Below are positions 1 to 64,000 of a stretch of DNA of 64,000 nucleotides, piece after piece. The first letter of the stretch is position 1. Each line of letters begins with the position of its first letter. The DNA is from a virus, in the IMG/VR virus record IMGVR_UViG_3300025728_000001, positions 21,817 to 85,816 of that record; one strand, written 5' to 3'. The notes below the pieces were generated by a model, which was not told the origin of the DNA, searched no databases, and was given only the letters and a program-made list of their open reading frames with translations. The position numbers were made by a program, and so were the translations under genes.

Positions 1-186
1 GTACCGACCAAAATCACTTTGTTGACCCCGCGAGCCATAAAAGCCCCCTCCTGTTGTATCCCTATACGTGGTTCGGGTGTAGTAACCCGCTGTTGGCGCA
101 TAAGATAATGCCTTATCAGGATTTAAAACAGCGCTTTTGTGTCTGCATGGTTTAGTATCTAGGCCATATCGAACTGAATTAGGGCT

Positions 187-21211: not shown

Positions 21212-21742
21212 ATGACTAGATGGATAAGCGACGATCACTTGAAGAGCCTCCCGGCCGCCATGACGCGGCGTGCGCTGGGTGGTGTTGCCTCGACACCTGC
21301 GGCCAGGAAGCCGGCGAGCCGGGCCACGGCCAAGACTGTGCAGATTCCTGAGCCGGTGGTGGCTACCGTTCCCGCTCCCACGGCAAAGCAGCGTATGCAG
21401 GCCAAGGGGCGCTTGCCGAAAGGGGTGATGAACGCCACCGAAACCCGGTACGCGGCGCACCTGGACGAGTTGAAGCTGGTCGGGGAGGTTGTGTGGTGGC
21501 GTTTCGAGCCGGTGAAGCTGTTACTGGCGCCGCTCACTACCCTGACGCCTGATTTCATGGTGCAGCTCGCTGACGGCGCGCTAGAAATGCACGACGTGAA
21601 GGGGGCGAAGGCCATCTACGAGGATGACGCCAAGGTCAAGATGAAGGTGGCCGCCAAGGAATACCCCTTTGTGTTCCGTGTGGTGTTCCCCAAGGCCAAG
21701 AAGGACGGCGGCGGGTGGTTGATTGAGCAGGTTGGTGAATGA
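21212..21742 (+). CDS. DUF1064-like PD-(D/E)XK nuclease
   Basis: TETRYA...WRFEP...TPDF...HDVKG. Confidence 0.75.
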   Translation: MTRWISDDHLKSLPAAMTRRALGGVASTPAARKPASRATAKTVQIPEPVVATVPAPTAKQRMQAKGRLPKGVMNATETRYAAHLDELKLVGEVVWWRFEPVKLLLAPLTTLTPDFMVQLADGALEMHDVKGAKAIYEDDAKVKMKVAAKEYPFVFRVVFPKAKKDGGGWLIEQVGE

Positions 21743-22017
21743 GCGGGCCACAGCCTCCCGAGGTGCTGGCCGCCCACGAACGATACGTTAGCCATATCAT
21801 GTTTTGCGTTGTTTGTTTTGCCCCAAAAAAGCGCCATTGTCCTACAGGATTGGCATTGCGGGTGGAGTACGACGCCCGTTTTTTAATGACCATTTCCGAC
21901 CTTCGCTGGCGCCGAATCCTGTTGCAGCGCGAGGTCGAGCAAAACCCGGCAAATGCTGACGGGCTCAAGGACCGCGTTATAGAGCTGTACAACGAAGAAC
22001 AGGGCGAGGCGCAATAG
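21739..22017 (+). CDS. Hypothetical Cys/His protein
   Basis: HIMFCVVC...C. Confidence 0.5.
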   Translation: MSGPQPPEVLAAHERYVSHIMFCVVCFAPKKRHCPTGLALRVEYDARFLMTISDLRWRRILLQREVEQNPANADGLKDRVIELYNEEQGEAQ

Positions 22018-22129
22018 GTTGTCAGTTTTCCCGCGTCAATAGCTAAGCTCTTGCGCCTTTTTGGCTTGCTAAATGTATAGGGATACTTTCTAATCGCCGA
22101 CGTTGAGACGTGCCGGGGAGGGTGCCTAG

Positions 22130-32670: not shown

Positions 32671-32791
32671 AATGCGATAGAGTGGCGTTTTAGCACCACA
32701 AAAGCCGTTTTTTAACCGAAAGAATGTATAGGGATACTTTTTGGATCCCTTTTTTGCCCCAAACCAGTAAAACGATAAGGATGGAAACCGG

Positions 32792-33184
32792 ATGATCTTG
32801 AAGGCGTACAGGGATGGGCAATTTCATTACATCAAGGCCCGCGATTTCGCCGGGTTCAAGGCAGACAGCAAGTATGTGATAGGCGTCACCCCGGATGGGC
32901 GCGAGTGGTTGTTGTCGGATGGCGTGACCCTTAAGTCTATCGAGTCGGTGTTGCCCGACCTGATCCGGTTGAATCGTGGGGTGCTGGTCAAGCGCTCCCA
33001 CGTCACCGGGCTGATTCGCACGCGCAAGGGCAGCAACATCGCTATCACCGTGGTGACGACGGCCGGCGAGTACAGGCTGGCGCGCCGCAACTGCGTGAGC
33101 ACCATTGTCGAGCTGATCGAGCACAACCTTAGGCGCGAACGCTCCCCCACTTACCCCATGGATAAATCGCCAGATGAGCTTTGA
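32792..33184 (+). CDS. Stand-alone LytTR DNA-binding domain protein
   Basis: ADSKYV...TLKSIE...LIRLNRGVLV...LARR. Confidence 0.75.
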   Translation: MILKAYRDGQFHYIKARDFAGFKADSKYVIGVTPDGREWLLSDGVTLKSIESVLPDLIRLNRGVLVKRSHVTGLIRTRKGSNIAITVVTTAGEYRLARRNCVSTIVELIEHNLRRERSPTYPMDKSPDEL

Positions 33185-33980: not shown

Positions 33981-34063
33981 GGCGCTGGCGTGCAAAGCGC
34001 CGGCCAATCCCCTTTCCCCTGCATGTGACACTACCGCCCTGGCTATCAATGGGGTGCGTGGAC

Positions 34064-47670: not shown

Positions 47671-48153
47671 ATGATGCAATCGGTACAGCTGCTGTTCACC
47701 CGCCGCCGCATGATCGGCAGCCTACTGATCCGGGGCATTACCTGGTCGTCGTTCAGTCACGTCGAGATCGTGGTGGGCGACCAGGTGATAGGCGCCAATA
47801 TGGTGGGAGGCGTGAGCCTGACGCCGCTCAAGGAACGCCTGGCGAATTCCAGCTATGCCGCCCTGGTCAATATCCCTTGCCATGACGCCCAGGCGATCAA
47901 GCAGACGGCGTTGAGCATGATCGGTGCCGGCTATGACTACTTGGCGCTGTTCGGGATCCTGGTGCACTCCGAGCGCTTCGACAGCAAAACGCGTTTCTTC
48001 TGTTCCGAGTTTGTGGCGTGGGCGTTTGAAAAGGCCGGTGCGCCGTTGATTCGTCCGGAGATTACCGGCCGCGTCACGCCCCAGCACCTGTGGATGCTCC
48101 CCGCTCCCACGGTGACGGCTGGCGACCCGCTTTCGCTCTTAAATTTGGCCTAA
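47671..48153 (+). CDS. Permuted papain-like NlpC/P60 (YiiX/YebB-like) enzyme
   Basis: FSHVEI...YDY...FFCSEFVAWA. Confidence 0.8.
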   Translation: MMQSVQLLFTRRRMIGSLLIRGITWSSFSHVEIVVGDQVIGANMVGGVSLTPLKERLANSSYAALVNIPCHDAQAIKQTALSMIGAGYDYLALFGILVHSERFDSKTRFFCSEFVAWAFEKAGAPLIRPEITGRVTPQHLWMLPAPTVTAGDPLSLLNLA

Positions 48154-48207
48154 CAATGTATAGGGATACTTTTCCGGGGTTCGCCCCGGCGAAGTATCGA
48201 GGTTTTT

Positions 48208-50499: not shown

Positions 50500-50997
50500 T
50501 TAGAGCGGCAATTCGTCTTGCACGCTGACTGCTGATGTCTCAACTTGACGCCCGCGCTCAGCAGAGTAGGTCACGCGCAGCTGGAAGGCCTGACGCTGCA
50601 TACAGATCTTGCGCCACTCGCCGCGACCAAAATAAAGCGGATTCACTTGGTATTCATTGGTCGACACCCGGCAGATCAAGTCCTTTTTGCACAGCTCGTT
50701 CAAACGGTTTCGAAAGGTTTGATCGGCAATCCCCAAGTTCGCGGCAATCTCTTTTCGCGACCGAGGCGAAAGCAGGATGTACCCCTCAAAGTCGAGCCGG
50801 CGCAGCAGCGACAGCAAGAACGTTTTGAGCGAGTCGGACACGTTGATCAGTACGCAGAGGTCGTCGAGGTACAGCTTGACGTAGGGCGGCTCACTGGGTA
50901 ATTGGAAAACATTGTGGGTGGTGCTTTCGATCACTTCGCCAGTCTGGAAGTTAACCACTTGAGAGCTGGTGCTCTGTACGACTTTTTTGGTAGCCAT
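50500..50997 (-). CDS. RepL-family plasmid replication/maintenance protein
   Basis: NFQTGEV...YVKLY...wHTH...YQVNPLYFGRG; AGGAGG RBS at 51005-51010. Confidence 0.75.
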   Translation of the reverse strand: MATKKVVQSTSSQVVNFQTGEVIESTTHNVFQLPSEPPYVKLYLDDLCVLINVSDSLKTFLLSLLRRLDFEGYILLSPRSRKEIAANLGIADQTFRNRLNELCKKDLICRVSTNEYQVNPLYFGRGEWRKICMQRQAFQLRVTYSAERGRQVETSAVSVQDELPL

Positions 50998-51102
50998 GCC
51001 GGATCCTCCTTTGTACCTTGTTAGATAGGTACATCCTAACATGTACAATGGTTCAGGTGTACTCCACTGAGTGAGTACATAAGTGCGCTGCGATCTTGGG
51101 AT

Positions 51103-51220
51103 TTTGTACCGTCCAGACGGTACAAATCTCGGGATAGGGGTTTTGGCCATTTGTACCGTCCACACGGTACAAACCTAACCGTCTCCACGGTACAAAAGTA
51201 ACCGTCTGGACGGTACAAAA
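51103..51220. repeat. Four palindromic iterons (TTTGTACCGTCnnnACGGTACAAA), putative plasmid origin
   Basis: Copies at 51103, 51150, ~51177, ~51200; AT-rich tract at 51255-51270. Confidence 0.8.
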
Positions 51221-54047: not shown

Positions 54048-54165
54048 ACGCCTGCAATAACACCATAGCGCATTAACGCCATACCGTCATAACAGAACAG
54101 ACCTATTGCGTTATGACGGGATAGCGCTAGAATTCGGCCATAATCAATTGGCCGGAGCGCTACAC

Positions 54166-54807
54166 ATGACAGTTATCGCGGTGATGAATCAGAAGGGCGG
54201 CGTGTGCAAAACCACCACTTGTGTCGGGCTGGCGCGGGCGCTAGATCTGGATGAGCGGGACGTGGTGCTGGTTGACTCGGATCCGCAGGGCAGCATGGTC
54301 GACTGGGCGGCGGCGAATGATTCGCAGCCCATTCAGGTGTACGTGATTGAGCGCACGAAGTTGGAGCGAGAAATTCCAAAGCTCACCAATGAATTCGTAA
54401 TCATCGACGGTACAGCGAAGGCCGCCGATCTGGCCTTGAAGACAATCAATGTCGCGGACCTGATCTTGATCCCCGTGCAGCCTTCCCCGCTTGACGTGTG
54501 GGCCACCAGCGAAATGGTGGACATGATTCACGACCGGATTGAAGAACAGAAAGCCGCGGGCGAGACGCCTGTACGCGCTGCCTTTATCGTTAGTCGCTCA
54601 TCAAGTCGGGCAAAGCTGAGCAAGAAAATTTCCGCGACTCTGGCGGGTTATGGCTTTCCAGTGCTGGAGGCTCGACTTTCACAGCGCCAAGAGCACCCGA
54701 ACTCTCATATGTCCGGGAAAACCCCTTTGGACACGCAGCCGCGCGGCCCAGCAGCGGCGGACCTTCGGGCTATCAAGGATGAAGTGTTGGCGCTCTTGGC
54801 GTCGTAA
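54166..54807 (+). CDS. parA: ParA partition ATPase (type Ib, ParF-like)
   Basis: NQKGGVCKTT, DSDPQGS, VIIDG, IPVQPSPLD. Confidence 0.93.
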   Translation: MTVIAVMNQKGGVCKTTTCVGLARALDLDERDVVLVDSDPQGSMVDWAAANDSQPIQVYVIERTKLEREIPKLTNEFVIIDGTAKAADLALKTINVADLILIPVQPSPLDVWATSEMVDMIHDRIEEQKAAGETPVRAAFIVSRSSSRAKLSKKISATLAGYGFPVLEARLSQRQEHPNSHMSGKTPLDTQPRGPAAADLRAIKDEVLALLAS

Positions 54808-55218: not shown

Positions 55219-55432
55219 AAATATGTCCACGAGTAGTTCCGCAGCGTTTTAGCGGACAGAAACGTAACTACTCGCCCTCTCCCACCTGCGTTAGCAAGGT
55301 CAAGATAGTGAAGCTATTTAAAGCCAGCCGATGCGGCCGCGTCAATTGGTGATTTGGCGCCACGCAAGCAAACCGCCGGCCGGGACTAGGGGAATCGGGC
55401 GGTATCGTGGCTGCTTTCAGGGAGCGGCTTCG

Positions 55433-58400
55433 ATGACAGACGTTTTTAGCAATCTCCAGAGCGCCGCGCATGCCGGCGCCTTTGGCATGGGCTCGCACGC
55501 ACAGCCCACGCCCGCGCAGATCAAGGCCGGCAACTACGCCAAGGGCAGCTTTCGCCTGCACGGCCTGCGCATCACCATTGAAACCCCCATGTTCCAGTCC
55601 CGCCGGGGCAAAGAAGACGGTAAGCCCTGGTCGATCACCTGCATGGCGCATTACGGCTATGTGAACGGCACCAAGGGCGCCGACGGTGACGCCGTGGACG
55701 TGTTCGTGGGACCAGTGCCCGAGAGCCTGCGCGTGTACGTGGTCAACCAGAACGCCAAGGACGGCTCATTCGATGAGCACAAGGTGCTGCTGGGCTTTAT
55801 CGACCAGGACCAGGCCTGCACCGCCTACATGAACTCTTACGAAAAGGGTTGGACCGGCCTGGGCAGTGTCGCGGCCTGCACCATCAAGCAATTCAAGTAT
55901 TGGCTCAAACACGGGGATCTAAGCCAGCCCCTCTCCCCCGACTTACCCAATATTCCGCAAGATGAGGCGTTGAGCATGACTGATGTATTTGCGCGCTGGG
56001 GCGCTGACAACCTACCCGTAGGGCAGACCGTGGGCGCCTTGCTGTACGAGCTGCGCCGCTCCGATCCGGACGGCCTGATGTTCGACAGCGCCACCATGGC
56101 CGATATCACTGAGAGCCTGGCCGACGACGGCACAATGCTCGATGCCATGGTGATCGAGTACAAGCAGTTTGAGCGCAAGGCTGGCCAGCTGCTCAAAGTG
56201 ATGCAGAACGTAGGCGGTGAGGTGAAGGCCGACGCTGTGGAAGTCAGCAAGCCGTTCAAGAGCAAGGGCACCACCCAAGTAGCCATGCTGTTCACCATGA
56301 GCGACGGCCAGAGCGTGTCGGTGTTCTTCCACAACCCGGACAGCACGCCCAACAAGCTCACGCCAGCCGACGAGCTGATCAGCTGGAAGTGGGTACAGAA
56401 CAAGAGGGACATCACCGCTGTGGTGGCGCCTGAGAGCGGCCAAGACCTCAACCCGCGCATTGTGTGCCGCCGGATCATGGCGCTGATTCAGAAGAACAGC
56501 GCCAAGTTCATCAAGGCGAACGAAGGCAAGACCGCCCGCACCGCCGCGCTCGATGAGCTGAAAGCCAGTGTGGAAAGCAAAACCGGCGAGCTGGCGGCAC
56601 TCGACACCCAAATCAGCGAACTACAGGCGCAGCTGGCTGAGAAGAAGGCCGCCCCGGTGGTGCCAGTCGCTCCAGTGGTCGAGCCGGTAGCCGTTGAGCC
56701 TGTTGCAGTGCTGGCGTCGACACAATGGCCAGCAGACGCCAAGGCGATGGCTACAGCGTTGAAGCGCCTGGCCACTGATTCCCCGACACCTATCCGGATC
56801 ATCCGAGCGACTAAGGGCGAGCGTCAAAGTGTCCAGGTGATCACTGAGCGAGGTGAGTTTGCCACGTTCACTACCATCGTCGCCCTGAAGACGCCCGAGG
56901 GTGCTGCATCGTTCTGGTATGTCTCCGCGACTGACTCCGACAAGCCGTCGGCCCCGCTTGATCGCCAGGAGCGCGATTACTTTGCAGCGCTGGTCAAAGC
57001 TACGAACGAACTCCCGCGCGCTGTAGTCGCTGAGCCTGCCCTTGCCCCTGTCGTCGAGCCTGAGCCGGTATCGACCGATCCTGTTGTCCCCGTCAGCACC
57101 GCCAGCGTCATCCTGGAGGACTACGCCGACGTTGCAGCGCTTGGCGAAGCCGTCGTGCTCAGCACCGGTTCCGAAAACGTGTACCTGGTCAAGGATGGCG
57201 TCCAGTACATGACGAAGTTGCTCAACACAGACGTGTATGAGCCGAAAGTGGGCGAAGTGGTCGACCTGTCGGGCGTGGTTGATCCGTTCGCCGTGTCCGA
57301 TGTAGATGAGTCGTCCGCAATTCTTCAAGGTCCAGCCGGGCCGGTGACTGTCGCCAAGACCAAATATGTAGAAACCGGTGAATGGGGCGTGAGTTGGGCC
57401 AGCACCCACCTCGCTACCGCTGCAAGCAAGGCCGAAGGTGTTGCCATTGCTGAGCGCGTCATTGCGTCGGGCGCTGACAACATCGACGGCATGCGTGCGG
57501 CGGTTGCCGTGACTACCCCCGAGCCGGTAGCAGAGCCAGAATCTGACCCGTATGAGGAAATTAACACCGCCCTCACGGCCGTGGGCTTTACCCGCGTGCA
57601 GCAAAATGACTGGGCTTCGCCGGCGTACCCTCTTGAAAATGGAGGGACTAAAGGTTTCAACGTGCGCGCCGGCGGGGAACCTGTGAGCATGCGCCTGAGC
57701 TTCCGTGTCACTTTTCCGGGGATTACAGGGGGCGGCCAGGAGGTCGGTACCTATCAAGATATCCCTTCGCTCATGGCTGCACTCGCTGCCGAGCAAGCCA
57801 AGGTCGCCCCGGCGCCAGTTGCTGAGCCTGACGAAACCGAAGACACCGGCGTTATCGAAGCCGAAGGCCGAGACAACACCGTCAAAACCGCCAAGGGCAC
57901 CAAGGTCGTGACCGGCTTCAAGGTGATCGAAGCGAAGAACCTGATCATCAGCCACGAGACTGACGGCACGATAAACCCTGACTACCCGGCTGAAATCCAG
58001 CCGCGTGACCGGGCGCGGGCGACATCGCAGGCGTGGGTGCAAAAGACAGCACGCAATCTTGACCCGGACAGCCTGGGGCGCACTCAGCGTGCCGACAGTG
58101 GCGCGCCTATCGTTGGTACCGACCGTGTGGTCGAATCGGGCAACGGCCGCGCCATGGCAGTCCGTGAGGCCTACCGCATTGGCCAGGCCGATGAATACCG
58201 GGAGTGGTTGCTGGAAAACGCGGAGTACTTCGGCGTAGACCCGGCCAAGATTCAGCGCATGAAAGCGCCGGTGCTGGTGCGTGTGCGTAAAACCGAGGTG
58301 AATCGGGTGGAGTTTGCCGTGGAATCCAACCAGGACGACAAGCTGGCGATGACGGCCACCGAGAAGGCCCGCAGCGATGCCAAGCGCCTGGACACCGCCA

Positions 58401-59359
58401 TGCTGTCGAAGCTGGCAGACGGCGACCTCAATAGCGCGGCCAACCGTGACTTTGTGGCGGCCTTCCTGCAATCGCTGGGCGATGCCGAGGCGGCGCAGTA
58501 CCTGACCAGCGACGGTAAACCAACGTCGAGCCTGATCAGTCGCCTACAGGCCGCGCTGTTTGCTGGTGCCTACTCAGACGATCGGTTGCTGGAAATGACC
58601 GCGGACCAGGCCAAGCCTGAGATTGCCAACATCGTTTCGGCCTTGAACAGCGCAGCGCCTGACTTCATGCGGGCCAAGGAACAGGACCGGATCGGCGCCG
58701 AGAAAGCGGGCGAGCAGGTCACCGACTCCCTGGAGCTGTCGCTTAACCAGGAGGCGGTCAACGCCATCATTGGCGCTACCAACGTGCTGCGCCAAGCCAA
58801 AGAGGCCGGCATGGGCCTGGACGAGTTCCTACGCCAGGGCGACATGTTTGGCGGCACGGATCCGGCTGTAGCAGCCATGGCCGTGTTTATCAGTGCCAAC
58901 AACCGCAGCGCCAAACGCATGAGCACCGCCTTCAAGGCCATGGCGCAGTTCGTTGAGAGCGAGAACGTGCGCAAGCAGACCGCGAGCCTGTTTGGTGATG
59001 AGCCTGTCAGCTTTACCGATATCGTCGGCGCGGCTAACCGCAAGCTGGAACAGGAATATGGCGAGGGGCTGTTTGCCATCGACCAGACCGACATGTTCAG
59101 CCCGGCGCCGCCAGCCGCTCCACCGGCGCCGGTTATCGAGCCAGAAGAGCCGAACGAGGATGACGCCTTGCAGAAGGCCAAGACCTATCTGGACGACATC
59201 ATTGGCGGCACCACCGACCTGGGCAGCCCTGGCGACGTGCTCAAAGAGCTTGAGAGCATTTACGCGGCCTATGGCGAGGACAAGCTGAGCGAGCTGTTCA
59301 TTGATGCCTCTAACGCCTTCCGGGACTACGCGTTGAAGGCTACCGCCGGCGCGTTCTAA
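55433..59359 (+). CDS. Large polyvalent protein: InPase-like + DarA_N-like + DdrB-like ParB domains
   Basis: AGNYAKG...HYGYVNGTKGADGDAVDVF...FDEHK; DGQSVSVFFHNPD...SWKW; QPRDR...GAPIV...ESGNGR. Confidence 0.8.
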   Translation: MTDVFSNLQSAAHAGAFGMGSHAQPTPAQIKAGNYAKGSFRLHGLRITIETPMFQSRRGKEDGKPWSITCMAHYGYVNGTKGADGDAVDVFVGPVPESLRVYVVNQNAKDGSFDEHKVLLGFIDQDQACTAYMNSYEKGWTGLGSVAACTIKQFKYWLKHGDLSQPLSPDLPNIPQDEALSMTDVFARWGADNLPVGQTVGALLYELRRSDPDGLMFDSATMADITESLADDGTMLDAMVIEYKQFERKAGQLLKVMQNVGGEVKADAVEVSKPFKSKGTTQVAMLFTMSDGQSVSVFFHNPDSTPNKLTPADELISWKWVQNKRDITAVVAPESGQDLNPRIVCRRIMALIQKNSAKFIKANEGKTARTAALDELKASVESKTGELAALDTQISELQAQLAEKKAAPVVPVAPVVEPVAVEPVAVLASTQWPADAKAMATALKRLATDSPTPIRIIRATKGERQSVQVITERGEFATFTTIVALKTPEGAASFWYVSATDSDKPSAPLDRQERDYFAALVKATNELPRAVVAEPALAPVVEPEPVSTDPVVPVSTASVILEDYADVAALGEAVVLSTGSENVYLVKDGVQYMTKLLNTDVYEPKVGEVVDLSGVVDPFAVSDVDESSAILQGPAGPVTVAKTKYVETGEWGVSWASTHLATAASKAEGVAIAERVIASGADNIDGMRAAVAVTTPEPVAEPESDPYEEINTALTAVGFTRVQQNDWASPAYPLENGGTKGFNVRAGGEPVSMRLSFRVTFPGITGGGQEVGTYQDIPSLMAALAAEQAKVAPAPVAEPDETEDTGVIEAEGRDNTVKTAKGTKVVTGFKVIEAKNLIISHETDGTINPDYPAEIQPRDRARATSQAWVQKTARNLDPDSLGRTQRADSGAPIVGTDRVVESGNGRAMAVREAYRIGQADEYREWLLENAEYFGVDPAKIQRMKAPVLVRVRKTEVNRVEFAVESNQDDKLAMTATEKARSDAKRLDTAMLSKLADGDLNSAANRDFVAAFLQSLGDAEAAQYLTSDGKPTSSLISRLQAALFAGAYSDDRLLEMTADQAKPEIANIVSALNSAAPDFMRAKEQDRIGAEKAGEQVTDSLELSLNQEAVNAIIGATNVLRQAKEAGMGLDEFLRQGDMFGGTDPAVAAMAVFISANNRSAKRMSTAFKAMAQFVESENVRKQTASLFGDEPVSFTDIVGAANRKLEQEYGEGLFAIDQTDMFSPAPPAAPPAPVIEPEEPNEDDALQKAKTYLDDIIGGTTDLGSPGDVLKELESIYAAYGEDKLSELFIDASNAFRDYALKATAGAF

Positions 59360-59379
59360 CCCTTCACCCACTGACCAAG

Positions 59380-59403
59380 AAGCCCGCCGAGTGCGGGCTT
59401 TTT
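59380..59403 (+). terminator. Rho-independent terminator
   Basis: AAGCCCGC-CGAGT-GCGGGCTTTTT. Confidence 0.75.
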
Positions 59404-59497
59404 GCTGGCCGAAAAGGTGCAAAGTCCGGCCTGGATGCGGAATAAAACGCCACGACACTGGGGGCCAGAACAAAAAAATCGCCAGTGGAGCTCTGCA

Positions 59498-60358
59498 ATG
59501 GAATCGTTCGTTACCCGCACCCTGACCATTAACGGTCAAACCATCCGCACCGCAGTACGCGCCGGAAAGCCGCACTTAACGCCGCTGCTGGTCTGTAACG
59601 GTATCGGCGCCAGCCTGGAGCTGGTATTGCCGTTCGCGAAGGCGCTGGACCCCGATCAGGGCGTCATAGCCTTCGACGTGCCGGGCGTGGGCGGATCCTC
59701 GACGCCGTGGCTGCCCTACAGCTTTAGCAGCCTGGCCAAGCTGGTGACCCGGATGCTCGACTATCTTGACGTCGGCCAGGTGAACGTCATCGGCTTGAGC
59801 TGGGGCGGGTTTCTCGCGCAGACCTTCGCCCACGAATACCCTGGCCGCTGCAAGAAACTCATCCTTGCCGCCACCTCGGCCGGCCTGGTTAGCGTTATGC
59901 CGTCCCTGAAAGTCCTATCGCTCATGGCGAGCCCGCGGCGCTACACCGACCCTACCCATGGGGCGAGGATCGCGCCGGATATCTATGGGGGCGAGTTCCG
60001 CCGCAACCCTGAGCTGGCGGCTGCGCATGCCGAGAAAATGCAGTCGACGGGCGGCCTGGGCTATTACTACCAAATGGCTGCCGTCTATTTGTGGACGTCG
60101 ATCCACTGGCTGTACACGCTCAAGCAGCCGACCCTGGTACTGGCCGGCTCAGACGATCCGATCATTCCCCTGGTCAATATGCAGACGCTGGCCAACCTCA
60201 TCCCCAATGCGCGGCTACACGTCGTCAACGATGGTCATCTGTTCTTGCTGACCCAGCGCGAAACCCTGGCGCCACTGATCATGTCGTTTCTGTCTGAGGC
60301 CACACAGGAACAGTCGTGTGTGGGCGCTGCTGAGCCCGCCGGCCTTTGCGCTCTGTAG
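59498..60358 (+). CDS. phaZ: Intracellular poly(3-hydroxyalkanoate) depolymerase
   Basis: PLL..NGIGASLEL, AFDVPGVGGS, GLSWGG lipase box, DDPIIP, DGHLFL; closely resembles Pseudomonas PhaZ. Confidence 0.92.
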   Translation: MESFVTRTLTINGQTIRTAVRAGKPHLTPLLVCNGIGASLELVLPFAKALDPDQGVIAFDVPGVGGSSTPWLPYSFSSLAKLVTRMLDYLDVGQVNVIGLSWGGFLAQTFAHEYPGRCKKLILAATSAGLVSVMPSLKVLSLMASPRRYTDPTHGARIAPDIYGGEFRRNPELAAAHAEKMQSTGGLGYYYQMAAVYLWTSIHWLYTLKQPTLVLAGSDDPIIPLVNMQTLANLIPNARLHVVNDGHLFLLTQRETLAPLIMSFLSEATQEQSCVGAAEPAGLCAL

Positions 60359-60373
60359 CCAACCTGGCGTCAC

Positions 60374-60538
60374 AAGCCCGCCGCTTGCGGGCTTTTTTGT
60401 GGGTATATCTAACGCATTAGCGTTTTAACATTTATGAGTTAAAGCGTTAAAGAGTTGTTGACCAGTAGGCACGACGTGCCTATTATCGCTCCAAGCCGAA
60501 CGAAGCGGCGCCTAACAGCAACGGAGCACGAAGCCATG
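60374..60538 (+). promoter_or_regulatory. Terminator + sigma70 promoter cassette, copy 1
   Basis: TTGACC(60458)-17bp-TATTAT(60481); palindrome TAGGCACGACGTGCCTA. Confidence 0.8.
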
Positions 60539-61429
60539 ACTAAGACCGCCGACCACTACCGCCAGCAAGCCGTTGAGCTGTTTGAAGCGGGCTTCACTTC
60601 CAAGGCGGGCCAAAAGCGCGCCCTTGATGTCTTGAATCGTGCTCACGAAATCCTGACTCGCTCGATTCAAGCGTTCTTCCTGGCCAAGCCTCACGCCGAG
60701 CGCACTGAGGCTGAATCAGCGGTTTACTGGGGCATGGCAGACTTGCACAACTGGAAGGCCAAGCACACCGCCGACACGCTGGCCGTGTACCCGCAAGCCG
60801 CCAGCATCTGCGCAGAAATCGAAGCGCTTGTAGAACTGCGCGCTGCAATCAAGGGTGCTGAAATCGTCAAGGTCCAGCGCGGCGAGTGTGGCGAGCTGGA
60901 TCTGGCCATTATCGCTCTGGCACCGGCTCCTATCACTGGTGCCGCAATCGCCAAAATTTCCGCCTCTCTGAAAACCATCTTCGCCCCAATGGACGCCAAG
61001 GTGCTGGAGGCCGCTAAGGAATGGGCTGTAGGTCGCGTTGCTGCCCTGAAAGAGTTCAAGGCCTCTGACGAGTACGCCGCGATCCGTCGTGACGCTTCCA
61101 AGCTGTACGAACGCCTGCACGCAATCGCCGGCGGTAAGACCTGGTACGCCGTATTCAACGGCACCGGTTCGGTTTACGTCTCGGAGTTCATGACAAAGAA
61201 CTGCGCAGCTACCGCCTACAAACGTAACGCCAGCATCACCACCAAGCTGGTCAAGGCGGGCGTGGCCGAAGTGGTAAGCGAGGAATACACCTACACCAAC
61301 GACGGCTTTAACGGGGTGTTCATCGTCAACACTAACGCCGGCTCCAAGCGCGTATCCATCGATACCATTTATGCCGGCGGCTACAACATTCAGTGCCTGC
61401 ACCTGCGCGTGCTGGTGAAGGTCAAGTAA
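60536..61429 (+). CDS. Early hypothetical protein
   Basis: GGAG RBS after a strong promoter; C-terminal AGGYNIQCLH. Confidence 0.65.
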   Translation: MTKTADHYRQQAVELFEAGFTSKAGQKRALDVLNRAHEILTRSIQAFFLAKPHAERTEAESAVYWGMADLHNWKAKHTADTLAVYPQAASICAEIEALVELRAAIKGAEIVKVQRGECGELDLAIIALAPAPITGAAIAKISASLKTIFAPMDAKVLEAAKEWAVGRVAALKEFKASDEYAAIRRDASKLYERLHAIAGGKTWYAVFNGTGSVYVSEFMTKNCAATAYKRNASITTKLVKAGVAEVVSEEYTYTNDGFNGVFIVNTNAGSKRVSIDTIYAGGYNIQCLHLRVLVKVK

Positions 61430-61479
61430 GGCCTGAGCACCCCGCCCGGAGCAATCCGGGCTCTACCTGGAGAAAGAGC

Positions 61480-61665
61480 ATGACCCGGACCCAATCAATC
61501 CAACAAGTCGACGCCCGCGCACTTGAAATCATCCGTCAGGAGCAAGCAGGCGATATCGACCATCAGGATATTCGCAACTGGCTGAAAAACTCTGCGGACC
61601 ACCTTGAGCTGGCTGCCCTGCACGTTGCAGCTCACGCGCTTGGCGTCACGGAGACAAGTCACTGA
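61480..61665 (+). CDS. Small hypothetical protein
   Basis: GGAG RBS. Confidence 0.5.
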   Translation: MTRTQSIQQVDARALEIIRQEQAGDIDHQDIRNWLKNSADHLELAALHVAAHALGVTETSH

Positions 61666-61752
61666 TAGGCCATTTCCGTCCATCGCCCCTTAGTTGGGGC
61701 TTTGCCAGTACCGCCAGAACGATCTGGCTCAACCCAGGCAAGAGGTTTCACC

Positions 61753-61908
61753 ATGAAATTCACAGCAAGCGAGCCAGCAGCGTCCGGCATGTTCCCGGTA
61801 GTCAGCGAGTGCGGGCATGACATGGGTTCGTTCAAGACCCAGGGCGAGGCGCAGAAGAAGGCCGCCGACCTGAATGCCGAATACGAGCGGATGAGCGAAG
61901 CGCTCTAG
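61753..61908 (+). CDS. Small hypothetical protein
   Basis: GAGG RBS; FKTQGEAQKKAADLN. Confidence 0.5.
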   Translation: MKFTASEPAASGMFPVVSECGHDMGSFKTQGEAQKKAADLNAEYERMSEAL

Positions 61909-61978
61909 ATTCGCCGTGTGATCAACGCCAAGCCCGCTCATGCGGGCTTTGTCAGTACAACCCGCCAGAGATAAGGCC

Positions 61979-62200
61979 ATGTCGTTCATCACGTCCGCTG
62001 TACTTGTTGCATCGATCTGCATGCCTGGTAAGGCCTGCATCGTTAAGGAGGTCGCCCGCTTCACCAATGGCGACACCGGGAAACAGTTCTGTATCGCTAC
62101 GGCGGGTTCCGTTAACAGCGTGGGGGATGAGGTAGGCGAAAGCCTTTACTACTGCGTCGACCCGAACACAGGGCAAAGGCTCTTCGCCTCGCTCAAGTGA
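61979..62200 (+). CDS. Small Cys-containing hypothetical protein
   Basis: TAAGG RBS. Confidence 0.5.
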   Translation: MSFITSAVLVASICMPGKACIVKEVARFTNGDTGKQFCIATAGSVNSVGDEVGESLYYCVDPNTGQRLFASLK

Positions 62201-62204
62201 CCTG

Positions 62205-62369
62205 AGCCCCTTCGCTGGGGCTTTTTTGTGGGCGTCTACTCAGCGCTGTAGCGTCTTAACTTTTTTACGTTAAAGCGTTAAAGAGTTATTGACCGATAGG
62301 CACGACATGCCTATTATCCTCCCAAGCCGAACGACACGGCGCCCCACAGCAGCGGAGCAAGACGACATG
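62205..62369 (+). promoter_or_regulatory. Terminator + sigma70 promoter cassette, copy 2
   Basis: TTGACC(62289)-17bp-TATTAT(62312); TAGGCACGACATGCCTA. Confidence 0.8.
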
Positions 62370-62777
62370 AACGCAAACATCGGAAAACTCAATAGCGGCA
62401 AGTGCTACGTCTACCTGAACGGCTACCGCGCTGAGCCGTTTTGGGGCACCGAAGCCGAATGCGAGTCGGCCATCGTTGCGCAAGGTGTTGCCGAGCCAAT
62501 CCCGGTGTTTGTCGACGGCGTGGATATGACCACCAGCACGACGGGCGTTGCAGCCCAGGCAGTGGCCGCCGAACCGATCAAGAAGGCCCGGCGCGCAACA
62601 CGCGAGTACGTCATGACCTTCAAGGCGGCGGACGGCTCCGAGGACGACACTAGCGGGCATGTGGAGAATGTTTTCGCAAAAGACCGTAACGAGGCGATGC
62701 GCAAAGGCCGCGACATCGTGCGGGAGAACTCAGGCCCATACGGCCCAAAGATTCGCGTCAGCGCCCGACTGGCCTAG
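62367..62777 (+). CDS. Early hypothetical protein
   Basis: GGAG RBS after promoter copy 2. Confidence 0.6.
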   Translation: MNANIGKLNSGKCYVYLNGYRAEPFWGTEAECESAIVAQGVAEPIPVFVDGVDMTTSTTGVAAQAVAAEPIKKARRATREYVMTFKAADGSEDDTSGHVENVFAKDRNEAMRKGRDIVRENSGPYGPKIRVSARLA

Positions 62778-62843
62778 CCGGCCCGCCAACCTCAAGCCCC
62801 TTCATTGGGGCATTGCCAGTACTACCTGACGGAGAATGAGCAG

Positions 62844-63110
62844 ATGACCACCAAAATCGAAACCCTCAAAGAAGAAATCAAAGGCTGGTTGAGCAATGCC
62901 GATGACGTAACTATCGCGGTTCACAACCGTGAAGCTTTCGCCAAGAACGCTGTTAAATCGATTGGCGAAGCGGTGAATGAATTCCTCGTCAATGATGCTG
63001 CTTACAGCACGCTGGCCATGTACCAGACTGATTTCATTCGCGAAATAGCCTTGAGCAAGGGCGCTGACGATGCCCGCATTATTTTGCTTTGGAAGGCATG
63101 CAAGCTCTAA
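62844..63110 (+). CDS. Hypothetical protein
   Basis: GGAG RBS. Confidence 0.55.
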   Translation: MTTKIETLKEEIKGWLSNADDVTIAVHNREAFAKNAVKSIGEAVNEFLVNDAAYSTLAMYQTDFIREIALSKGADDARIILLWKACKL

Positions 63111-63176
63111 GACAACCCGCCCGTTGCGCGCCCCTTAATTGGGGCTTCGTCAGTACCAACATAAGGAGATTCACCC

Positions 63177-63437
63177 ATGCCGCCACGTAAGCAGATGTCA
63201 TTGAAGCAAATGGAAGTCCAGGCCAAGGCCTTGTGCTTCGACTGGAACGAAAAGCACCCGAGCGGAACCATGGTCAGCTATGAGTCTGTGTTGGGTAGTG
63301 GCGAAACCCATCGCTGCCGAACCAATGGCAAGGCGTTTGTATCGAGCTGCGAAGCCGTGATTTTCATCGAGCGCGTATCGGGCTACGTCTCCCTGGAGCA
63401 CTGCACCGCCGTTGCGGATGAGGCCGTAGGCGCATAA
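63177..63437 (+). CDS. Hypothetical protein
   Basis: TAAGGAG RBS; WNEKHPSGT. Confidence 0.6.
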   Translation: MPPRKQMSLKQMEVQAKALCFDWNEKHPSGTMVSYESVLGSGETHRCRTNGKAFVSSCEAVIFIERVSGYVSLEHCTAVADEAVGA

Positions 63438-63502
63438 CCGCCGGCGGAAGGAACAACCCCCTTGATTGGGGGTTTTCTGGTATCCACAAAGGGAAGTCCG
63501 AA

Positions 63503-63766
63503 ATGACCACAAACAGTGAGGCGTATTTTGCCCGGAAGCTCTTGGCCACTTTAAAAGAGCACCACCCTGCGTTTGCTGTAGAAACCGTGAAGGGAAGCCG
63601 GATCGGTGCTGGGTCGCAGCGTGTGATTCACATCAAACACAGCGGCGGGAAATTTGCGCAGTTCCCATTCCCCATGAAAGGTTTGCACTCCGGCGCCGTA
63701 AGCGATGCTCTGTACATGTCGGCGTGCAGCATGTTGCAACTTACGCCCGCCCCCGAAGCAATGTAG
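63503..63766 (+). CDS. Hypothetical protein
   Basis: Purine-rich RBS. Confidence 0.55.
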   Translation: MTTNSEAYFARKLLATLKEHHPAFAVETVKGSRIGAGSQRVIHIKHSGGKFAQFPFPMKGLHSGAVSDALYMSACSMLQLTPAPEAM

Positions 63767-63776
63767 GAAATGTCCA

Positions 63777-64000
63777 ATGAGTTCTAAACCTCGAAAGGGC
63801 GCCAAGCCTGACGCAACCCTGCATAACCCTGACGCGGCGTACATGCGCAGCCTGGTAGAGGCGTCCGGCATGACTCAGGTGCAGGCCGCCGAGGCTATCG
63901 GTATCAGTGAGCGCGCCATGCGCAACTACCTGAGCAAGACCGCGGGGAAGTACATCGCTCCCCCCTACCCGGTCCAGTACGCGCTTGAGCAGTTGGCCGC
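63777..64000 (+). CDS. XRE HTH protein (runs off the window end)
   Basis: HNPDAAYMRSLVEASGMTQVQAAEAIGISERAMRNYL...PYPVQYALE. Confidence 0.75.
   Translation, partial: MSSKPRKGAKPDATLHNPDAAYMRSLVEASGMTQVQAAEAIGISERAMRNYLSKTAGKYIAPPYPVQYALEQLA

Follow-up and report, generated by a model that had tools for sequence, protein, structure and literature searches.

The PhaZ family comprises intracellular depolymerases of medium-chain-length polyhydroxyalkanoates (mcl-PHA), the carbon stores of pseudomonads. Why would a bacteriophage carry a gene of this family, and when would it use it? The question is raised by phaZ in IMG/VR record IMGVR_UViG_3300025728_000001, a phage contig of 85,816 bp with 59.7% G+C, whose final 64 kb (positions 21,817 to 85,816) was analysed here as one stretch, referred to as the window. 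An initial annotation had read this gene as a domesticated auxiliary metabolic gene (AMG) that releases host carbon stores during virion assembly. The AMG part of that description is borne out in so far as the predicted enzyme is intact, the phage is complete, and the gene is accessory and forms a one-gene unit behind a promoter element of the phage's putative late class. The locus suggests that the phage may tap the PHA store of its host during virion production, with expression, activity and benefit all predicted from the sequence.

The phaZ product

The open frame extends from 59402 to 60358, and the ATG at 59498 is the start that agrees with all homologues. The encoded protein matches the NCBIfam equivalog TIGR02240 (poly(3-hydroxyalkanoate) depolymerase) with 425.6 bits against a curated cut-off of 250.6, over residues 4-270 (profile positions 2-268 of 276); the runner-up family scored 108.7 bits, far under its own cut-off, and the Pfam match is Abhydrolase_1. 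In the depolymerase of Pseudomonas putida, PhaZ-KT, a catalytic triad (Ser102/Asp221/His248), a lid (residues 133-192), an essential Asn35 and a hinge serine, Ser184, have been described (PMC12504323). Ser101 (in GLSWG), Asp220 and His247 of the window protein align with this triad and are invariant across 18 aligned sequences, and Asn34 and Ser183 are kept at the positions of Asn35 and Ser184. The lid is full-length and 60% identical to that of PhaZ-KT. An AlphaFold (AF2) model with a predicted local distance difference test (pLDDT) score of 72 gave an alpha/beta hydrolase with a helical lid at 137-207, and the nearest solved folds found with this model were generic lidded esterases and alpha/beta hydrolases; no solved structure of a close relative was found by sequence search. 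Judged by profile and alignment, the window protein is an intact, full-length PhaZ-family hydrolase with all the residues known to be needed, in agreement with the Ser-Asp-His motifs noted initially. Cleavage of mcl-PHA by this enzyme is predicted, with a lid hinge unlike that of PhaZ-KT.

The gene was also said to lack the phaC1 and phaC2 neighbours that it has on Pseudomonas chromosomes. A search with PF07167 (PhaC) gave no match in the whole 85.8-kb phage genome, and in two Pseudomonas genomes (G002 and G353) phaZ lies between two PhaC genes.

A putative promoter element shared with virion genes

The initial annotation placed phaZ behind the element GCAAA-N30-GACACT, said to precede the virion genes as well. 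As a literal string this did not hold: GCAAA-N28-32-GACACT occurs at two sites only, 33992 and 59419, and the hexamer GACACT itself is not enriched. The generalised form GCAAA-N30-xAxxxT did hold. When all upstream regions and all intergenic GCAAA sites were listed, a common layout emerged, consisting of YGCAAA, exactly 30 nt, and a hexamer whose second base is A and whose sixth is T (YGCAAA-N30-xAxxxT). We counted this pattern across the genome at each gap from 18 to 44 and found 16 plus-strand sites at gap 30, versus 0-8 at the remaining gaps; its TGCAAA form gave 9 sites at gap 30, at most 3 elsewhere and 0 on the minus strand. Likely start codons follow these sites after 7-42 nt. The genes and operons concerned are a polyvalent gene with a DarB-like methyltransferase, the major capsid gene, a tail operon, the gene at 21212, the large terminase gene, the 34-kb operon, the portal gene, the baseplate operon, the tail fibre gene, the Hdf/DarA_N gene, the InPase polyvalent gene and phaZ. 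In 12 related viral loci (266 kb), DNA that had no part in finding the element, gap 30 gave 63 gene-strand matches; the counts were 6-25 for the other gaps and 5 for the opposite strand. The element is absent from phage Rb1.

A position matrix was then built from 12 other gene-proximal sites, with the phaZ site held out, and it ranked the phaZ site second among ~171,600 non-training positions. The leave-one-out score of this site, 8.7, falls within the 4.8-31.7 spanned by the accepted sites, near the scores of the terminase, polyvalent-gene and 33992 sites; at the last of these (33992-34032) the GACACT hexamer recurs with identical spacing. We conclude that YGCAAA-N30-xAxxxT is a real element, spacing- and strand-specific, and that phaZ has it. 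From its layout and the genes that it precedes, we infer that it would act as an activator-dependent promoter that fires late.

Other promoter types were considered for phaZ. A consensus scan found no sigma-70-like promoter upstream of the gene. A sigma-54 candidate, TGGC-N8-TGCA at 59406-59421 (+), overlaps the TGCAAA box and was taken as coincidence: 15 matches to the pattern stand against an expectation of 9 for the window, and its GG element is missing from the other late sites. A second sigma-54-like match, at 33991-34006 (-), likewise overlaps a late-class box, faces the wrong direction and is probably due to chance.

Insertion of phaZ into a cargo region

The phage genome is genuine and complete, with portal, terminase, capsid, sheath, baseplate and fibre genes and direct terminal repeats; the contig ends overlap by ~130 bp and CheckV completeness is 100. 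Terminators flank phaZ on both sides, as first described (Table 1), and the hairpin of the left copy was matched in stability by 0 of 200 shuffles. In 15 IMG/VR relatives the upstream polyvalent protein is 62-92% identical and the surrounding genes are shared. At this position phaZ is absent from all 15 and likewise from three Pseudomonadaceae contigs (G353, G167 and G275). In close relatives the polyvalent stop codon is followed by a single terminator and then directly by an octamer array and a TTGACC-17-TATTAT cassette, which in the window begins only at ~60400. By alignment, the left flank of the window is colinear with the relatives up to terminator copy 1 and the right flank from copy 2 on; the putative late promoter, the ribosome-binding site and phaZ lie between the copies. 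Because two copies of the relatives' single terminator bracket this promoter and phaZ, the arrangement is a cassette insertion. These comparisons identify phaZ as a lineage-specific gain in a cargo hot spot and as a putative one-gene unit between two terminators. In the relative L111 this site is occupied by another cargo gene, which stands behind GCAAA-N30-TACAAT and whose product has a signal-peptide-like start.

The hot spot itself comprises window positions 59360-64000 together with genome positions 1-2826, between two polyvalent (Dar-like) genes. Its small genes differ in every relative (L110-L123; L107, 2441-13330), and they are preceded in some cases by the sigma-70 cassette, in others by the late motif.

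An assembly chimera, which the initial annotation had named as a possible refutation, is ruled out: the identical PhaZ protein is on record from JGI, Logan and ENA (longest contig, 85,830 bp), and both cassette junctions are phage sequence. Two further contigs encode variants that are 98% and 96% identical and diverge mostly over the final 19 residues. IMG/VR does not contain the junction 24-mer, and no match to the 100 nt preceding phaZ was found elsewhere among the DNA compared. The G+C of phaZ matches that of the adjacent genes. A recent chromosomal donor was sought and none is visible, the best DNA identity being ~74% among the chromosomes compared; the best protein identity was 65-70%, with all matches from Pseudomonas (one genome per GTDB species), and an exact-peptide scan of the genomes gave no match.

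Separately, a window open reading frame at 61702-61908 ends in EYERMSEAL, the C-terminus of a non-chromosomal PhaZ (P0030), and a further sequence, P0009, ends similarly. The shared end may be a short C-terminal motif or an old recombination joint.

Table 1. Positions of features discussed in the text (window coordinates).
Feature	Position	Strand	Basis or remark
RepL-like gene	50500-51176	-	adjoins two 34-bp direct repeats, iteron-like (51096, 51143)
ParA	54106-54807		
Polyvalent protein, 1,308 aa, InPase + DarA_N + ddrB-ParB	55433-59359	+	Pfam, PHROGs; upstream neighbour of phaZ
Terminator copy 1, hairpin + T-run, left direct repeat	59376-59404	+	-19.5 kcal/mol, z -3.17
Upstream box TGCAAA of putative late-class promoter	59418-59423	+	motif counts, matrix
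-10-like hexamer GACACT	59454-59459	+	exactly 30 nt after GCAAA; predicted transcript start near 59466
Ribosome-binding site GGAG	59487-59490	+	7 nt ahead of ATG 59498, read from sequence
phaZ, 286 aa, intracellular mcl-PHA depolymerase family, alpha/beta hydrolase with helical lid	59498-60358	+	TIGR02240, Abhydrolase_1
Terminator copy 2, right direct repeat	60374-60400	+	-17.7 kcal/mol
Sigma-70-type promoter TTGACC-17-TATTAT of next small-gene cassette	60458-60486	+	

PhaZ in other phages and phylogeny

In a search of 5.8 billion proteins, ~20 sequences at 69-77% identity ranked above all named Pseudomonas PhaZ (63-68%), many of them on contigs of 50-116 kb. On a 116-kb viral contig (L001), phaZ lies amid accessory genes (SPFH, NAPRTase, phosphoesterase) near a tail fibre gene. 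In a complete 48.9-kb prophage-type genome with terminal repeats (L003), it is flanked by a reverse transcriptase gene and a DNA methyltransferase gene, in an operon that also has RecE/RecT-like genes and an integrase; the same early-operon setting was found in L002 and L004-L009. A more distant homologue, at 46.8% identity and 291 bits against the cut-off of 250.6, is present in the Ralstonia jumbo phages RP12 and RP31. All members tested against the TIGR02240 cut-off passed it, namely L001, L003, five further contigs and RP12. Among the PhaZ-family matches in the searches run, no P1-family phage record or plasmid was found.

A tree of 89 sequences was inferred, including 26 known chromosomal and 10 known viral PhaZ and ~50 sequences of unassigned context outside the chromosomal clade; a quick method was used, with support from the Shimodaira-Hasegawa-like approximate likelihood ratio test (SH-aLRT) only and with RP12, a long branch, as the root. 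All 26 chromosomal sequences form one clade (SH-aLRT 100, stem length 0.49). The known viral sequences (10 of 10) fall outside it in three lineages, as does the window PhaZ, and the labels change once on the tree against a mean of 9 changes in shuffles. A phylogeny had been proposed as a check for a phage-specific clade; the outcome is that known viral PhaZ are separate from the chromosomal clade and form three lineages.

The genes of RP12 and RP31 (ΦRP12-ORF269 and ΦRP31-ORF266) were listed as poly(3-hydroxyalkanoate) depolymerase without comment (PMC5468394), and in sequence records they are annotated as esterase/lipase or hypothetical. A 2026 preprint proposed the poly(3-hydroxybutyrate) (PHB) depolymerase of a Gloeobacter prophage as an AMG (PMC13317609). 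Our literature search found no functionally tested phage PHA depolymerase, so that the initial statement that no characterised example was known holds within that search, with these annotated, unstudied cases beside it. Phage-borne PhaZ genes are already listed in the literature; the novelty of this locus lies in its putative late-promoter wiring and in how the insertion is built.

Proposed role and alternative explanations

We propose the following scenario. The phage gained phaZ as a ~1-kb cassette (late promoter, ribosome-binding site, phaZ and terminator) in the hot spot after the Dar-like polyvalent gene. The element would act as an activator-dependent late promoter, working like the Lpa-dependent promoters of P1, and PhaZ would be made alongside the virion proteins from a one-gene transcript. 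The enzyme would bind the mcl-PHA granules of the host and free (R)-3-hydroxyalkanoic acids, which host FadD would activate and beta-oxidation would burn, turning stored carbon into acetyl-CoA, reducing power and ATP at the peak demand of virion synthesis and DNA packaging. The likely setting would be nutrient-limited, PHA-loaded cells, such as are common in soil and rhizosphere. The PhaZ/FadD route of PHA use in pseudomonads is established knowledge. We put the probability that phaZ encodes a working mcl-PHA depolymerase, made with the virion proteins and feeding host beta-oxidation from PHA granules, at roughly 55%.

Several observations weigh against this scenario. On the promoter side, the phaZ site is among the weaker matches to the element and lacks the GC hairpin and T-run that most of the spacers have; the word "late" rests on which genes the motif precedes; and the one activator candidate tested (32792-33184) had no match in the phage collection. 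On the enzyme side, the window protein is just 63-70% identical to chromosomal PhaZ, and its lid hinge reads YYYQMA where PhaZ-KT has YYWQLF; a single lid-hinge substitution makes PhaZ-KT an esterase with depolymerase activity almost lost (PMC12504323). Close relatives manage without phaZ, and the host of the phage is indicated only indirectly, through relatives. As to timing, the claim of carbon release during virion assembly agrees with the position of phaZ behind the virion-gene promoter class, but it fails as a general rule, the homologue in lambdoid prophages being placed in the early recombination operon; late synthesis is also not the obvious timing for an enzyme that supplies fuel.

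Two alternatives are each unlikely. The first is that phaZ is a lysogenic-conversion gene, or moron, which acts from a resident prophage or plasmid and alters PHA turnover in the lysogen, for instance by speeding recovery from starvation, rather than serving lytic growth. The integrase, ParA, RepL-like and helix-turn-helix (HTH) repressor-like genes mark the phage as temperate, and a gene that stands in a variable cargo region with a promoter and terminator of its own has the classical layout of a moron. However, the only recognisable signal ahead of phaZ is of the virion-gene class, with no promoter of sigma-70 type, and the likely hosts already have phaZ, so that an extra unregulated copy would mainly lower their PHA stores.

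The second, which we consider similarly improbable, is that the phage enzyme now acts on a different ester and no longer on PHA, its substrate being, for example, a lipid or lipoprotein of the envelope in lysis or a small molecule of signalling or defence. The branch of 0.49 that parts chromosomal from non-chromosomal sequences is compatible with such a shift, as are group-specific changes beside the nucleophile (SWGGF in place of SWGGA, with F after SWGG in the window protein and A in PhaZ-KT) and in the lid hinge, the region where one mutation converts PhaZ-KT. YYYQM is the commonest hinge form among the 16 non-chromosomal rows of the 18-sequence alignment. Ralstonia produces short-chain PHB, and it is jumbo phages of this genus that carry a homologue; phaZ also adjoins anti-restriction genes, and its presumed late timing would be shared with lysis genes. 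The altered hinge and the Ralstonia homologue lend this alternative a certain weight. The full-length equivalog match far over the cut-off speaks for a depolymerase, as does the retention of a complete lid and of all residues shown to matter in PhaZ-KT, and the lid is conserved among the non-chromosomal sequences.

That phaZ is a passenger, a recent cassette without a selected role that persists since the site tolerates cargo, appears improbable to a greater degree. The gene is absent from all 18 relatives examined, and the gene content of the region differs in each of them; but the frame is intact, the ribosome-binding site good and the promoter typical of its class. Moreover, three variants, at 96-100% identity, differ chiefly in the C-terminal tail, and members of the family are carried by at least four phage types that are unrelated to one another. 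Least probable, at long odds, is that PhaZ is made late because it travels in the capsid together with the Dar-like proteins and enters the cell with the DNA; PHA breakdown would then begin in the first minute of the next infection, ahead of the expression of any phage gene. This idea is compatible with the late-class promoter and with the adjacent genes for DarA_N- and ddrB-domain proteins, but PhaZ has no DarA_N or other recognisable packaging domain.

If the proposed fuel-supplying role is correct, burst size in starved soil or rhizosphere cells would depend on the carbon reserve of the host, and viruses would contribute to PHA turnover, both in nature and in industrial PHA production when phages strike the fermentation. 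Much of the dry mass of a nutrient-limited pseudomonad can consist of PHA. The locus offers a clean test case, with a one-gene cassette, a defined promoter class and cassette-free natural relatives as controls. The non-chromosomal PhaZ also form a pool of diverged lid variants of an enzyme studied for bioplastic recycling.

Other features of the phage genome

Judged from its gene content, the phage is a temperate myovirus with a distantly P1-like virion module. Genes upstream of the window encode the major capsid protein, tail sheath, tube-like and PmgG-like head proteins and an integrase. The window begins with a replication initiator and the small terminase, followed by the large terminase and a nucleoid-associated protein, and at ~34-50 kb it encodes the portal, tail lysin, baseplate and tail fibres. 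The phage also encodes an Hdf/DarA_N-like protein, ParA and an HTH repressor-like gene. With its RepL-like, ParA and integrase genes, it carries maintenance genes of both plasmid and integrative type. The polyvalent protein next to phaZ is probably a Dar-like, capsid-carried anti-restriction protein. Its longest frame starts at 55331, and a late-class site (GCAAA at 55368, -10 box at 55403-55408) lies within the extension; because this GCAAA-N30-TATCGT site falls inside the longer frame, the ATG at 55433 is the likely real start.

The nearest named phages by portal protein are Xanthomonas phage Rb1 (43% identity), Acinetobacter phage ABMM1 (30%) and P1/P7/D6 (27%), and ~20 proteins are common to Rb1 and this phage. 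A related portal was found in three of 401 sampled Pseudomonadaceae genomes (58, 47 and 42% identity), two of the three contigs being 85.7 and 89.5 kb long, about the size of this entire phage. The genome with the 85.7-kb contig, G353, also has a phaC1-phaZ-phaC2 cluster. Through these relatives in Pseudomonadaceae, the phage is assigned probable hosts of Pseudomonas type.

A gene at 47671-48153 was considered as a second PHA-related gene and rejected: PHROGs labels it "enoyl-CoA hydratase/carnithine racemase-like" (AMG category), but Pfam assigns it to Peptidase_C92. This family comprises permuted papain-like amidases, and the gene sits after the tail-fibre genes; the PHROGs label is misleading.

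A palindromic 13-mer, TGTATAGGGATAC, occurs at 22074-22086, 32725-32737 and 48157-48169 (+) and at 56-68 (-), three of the copies being exact and one having a mismatch at one position. They precede the HTH repressor-like gene, a small gene resembling a regulator, a structural operon and the leftward operon for a single-stranded DNA-binding protein (SSB) and exonuclease. The 13-mer was rejected as a late promoter, since it precedes regulator-like and early leftward genes; its copies look like dispersed repressor operators, in the manner of the C1 sites of P1.

Comparison with known systems

The closest characterised counterpart of the window enzyme is PhaZ-KT of P. putida KT2440/KT2442, with which it shares TIGR02240 membership, length, the GxSxG nucleophile, the Ser/Asp/His triad, equivalents of Asn35 and Ser184 and the position of the lid. 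It differs in overall sequence (~64% identity), in the hinge, in F for A after SWGG and in the C-terminal tail. PhaZ-KT sits in the chromosomal clade, whereas the window PhaZ lies outside it, alone in a phage behind a phage promoter. Compared with the gene of the chromosomal phaC1-phaZ-phaC2 cluster, the window phaZ has neither the PhaC flanks nor a place in the chromosomal clade. The genes of ΦRP12 and ΦRP31 are likewise phage-borne, unstudied members of TIGR02240, but they belong to lytic phiKZ-like jumbo phages of another host genus and are far more distant.

The promoter element invites comparison with P1, which has 11 Lpa-dependent late promoters and 15 one-gene units, its element being a 9-bp inverted repeat (PMC10695390). 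In both classes a -10 box stands without a -35 box, and a conserved upstream element recurs ahead of late operons. Unlike the 9-bp inverted-repeat Lpa box, the element described here is YGCAAA at a fixed 30 nt with an unconserved spacer, and no Lpa homologue was identified. Components of the P1 virion module are shared distantly, including the portal (27%), sheath, PmgG-like, DarA_N/Hdf-like, ddrB-like and RepL-like proteins and ParA. By this analogy the element resembles the P1 class in its presumed working and is not a member of that class.

Finally, as in phage AMGs and morons, phaZ is a host-type metabolic gene that is dispensable for the virion and lies between conserved genes with its own promoter and terminator. 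Different from these, the target of its product would be a storage polymer, and its promoter is of the putative late class rather than of the host type that is active in lysogens.

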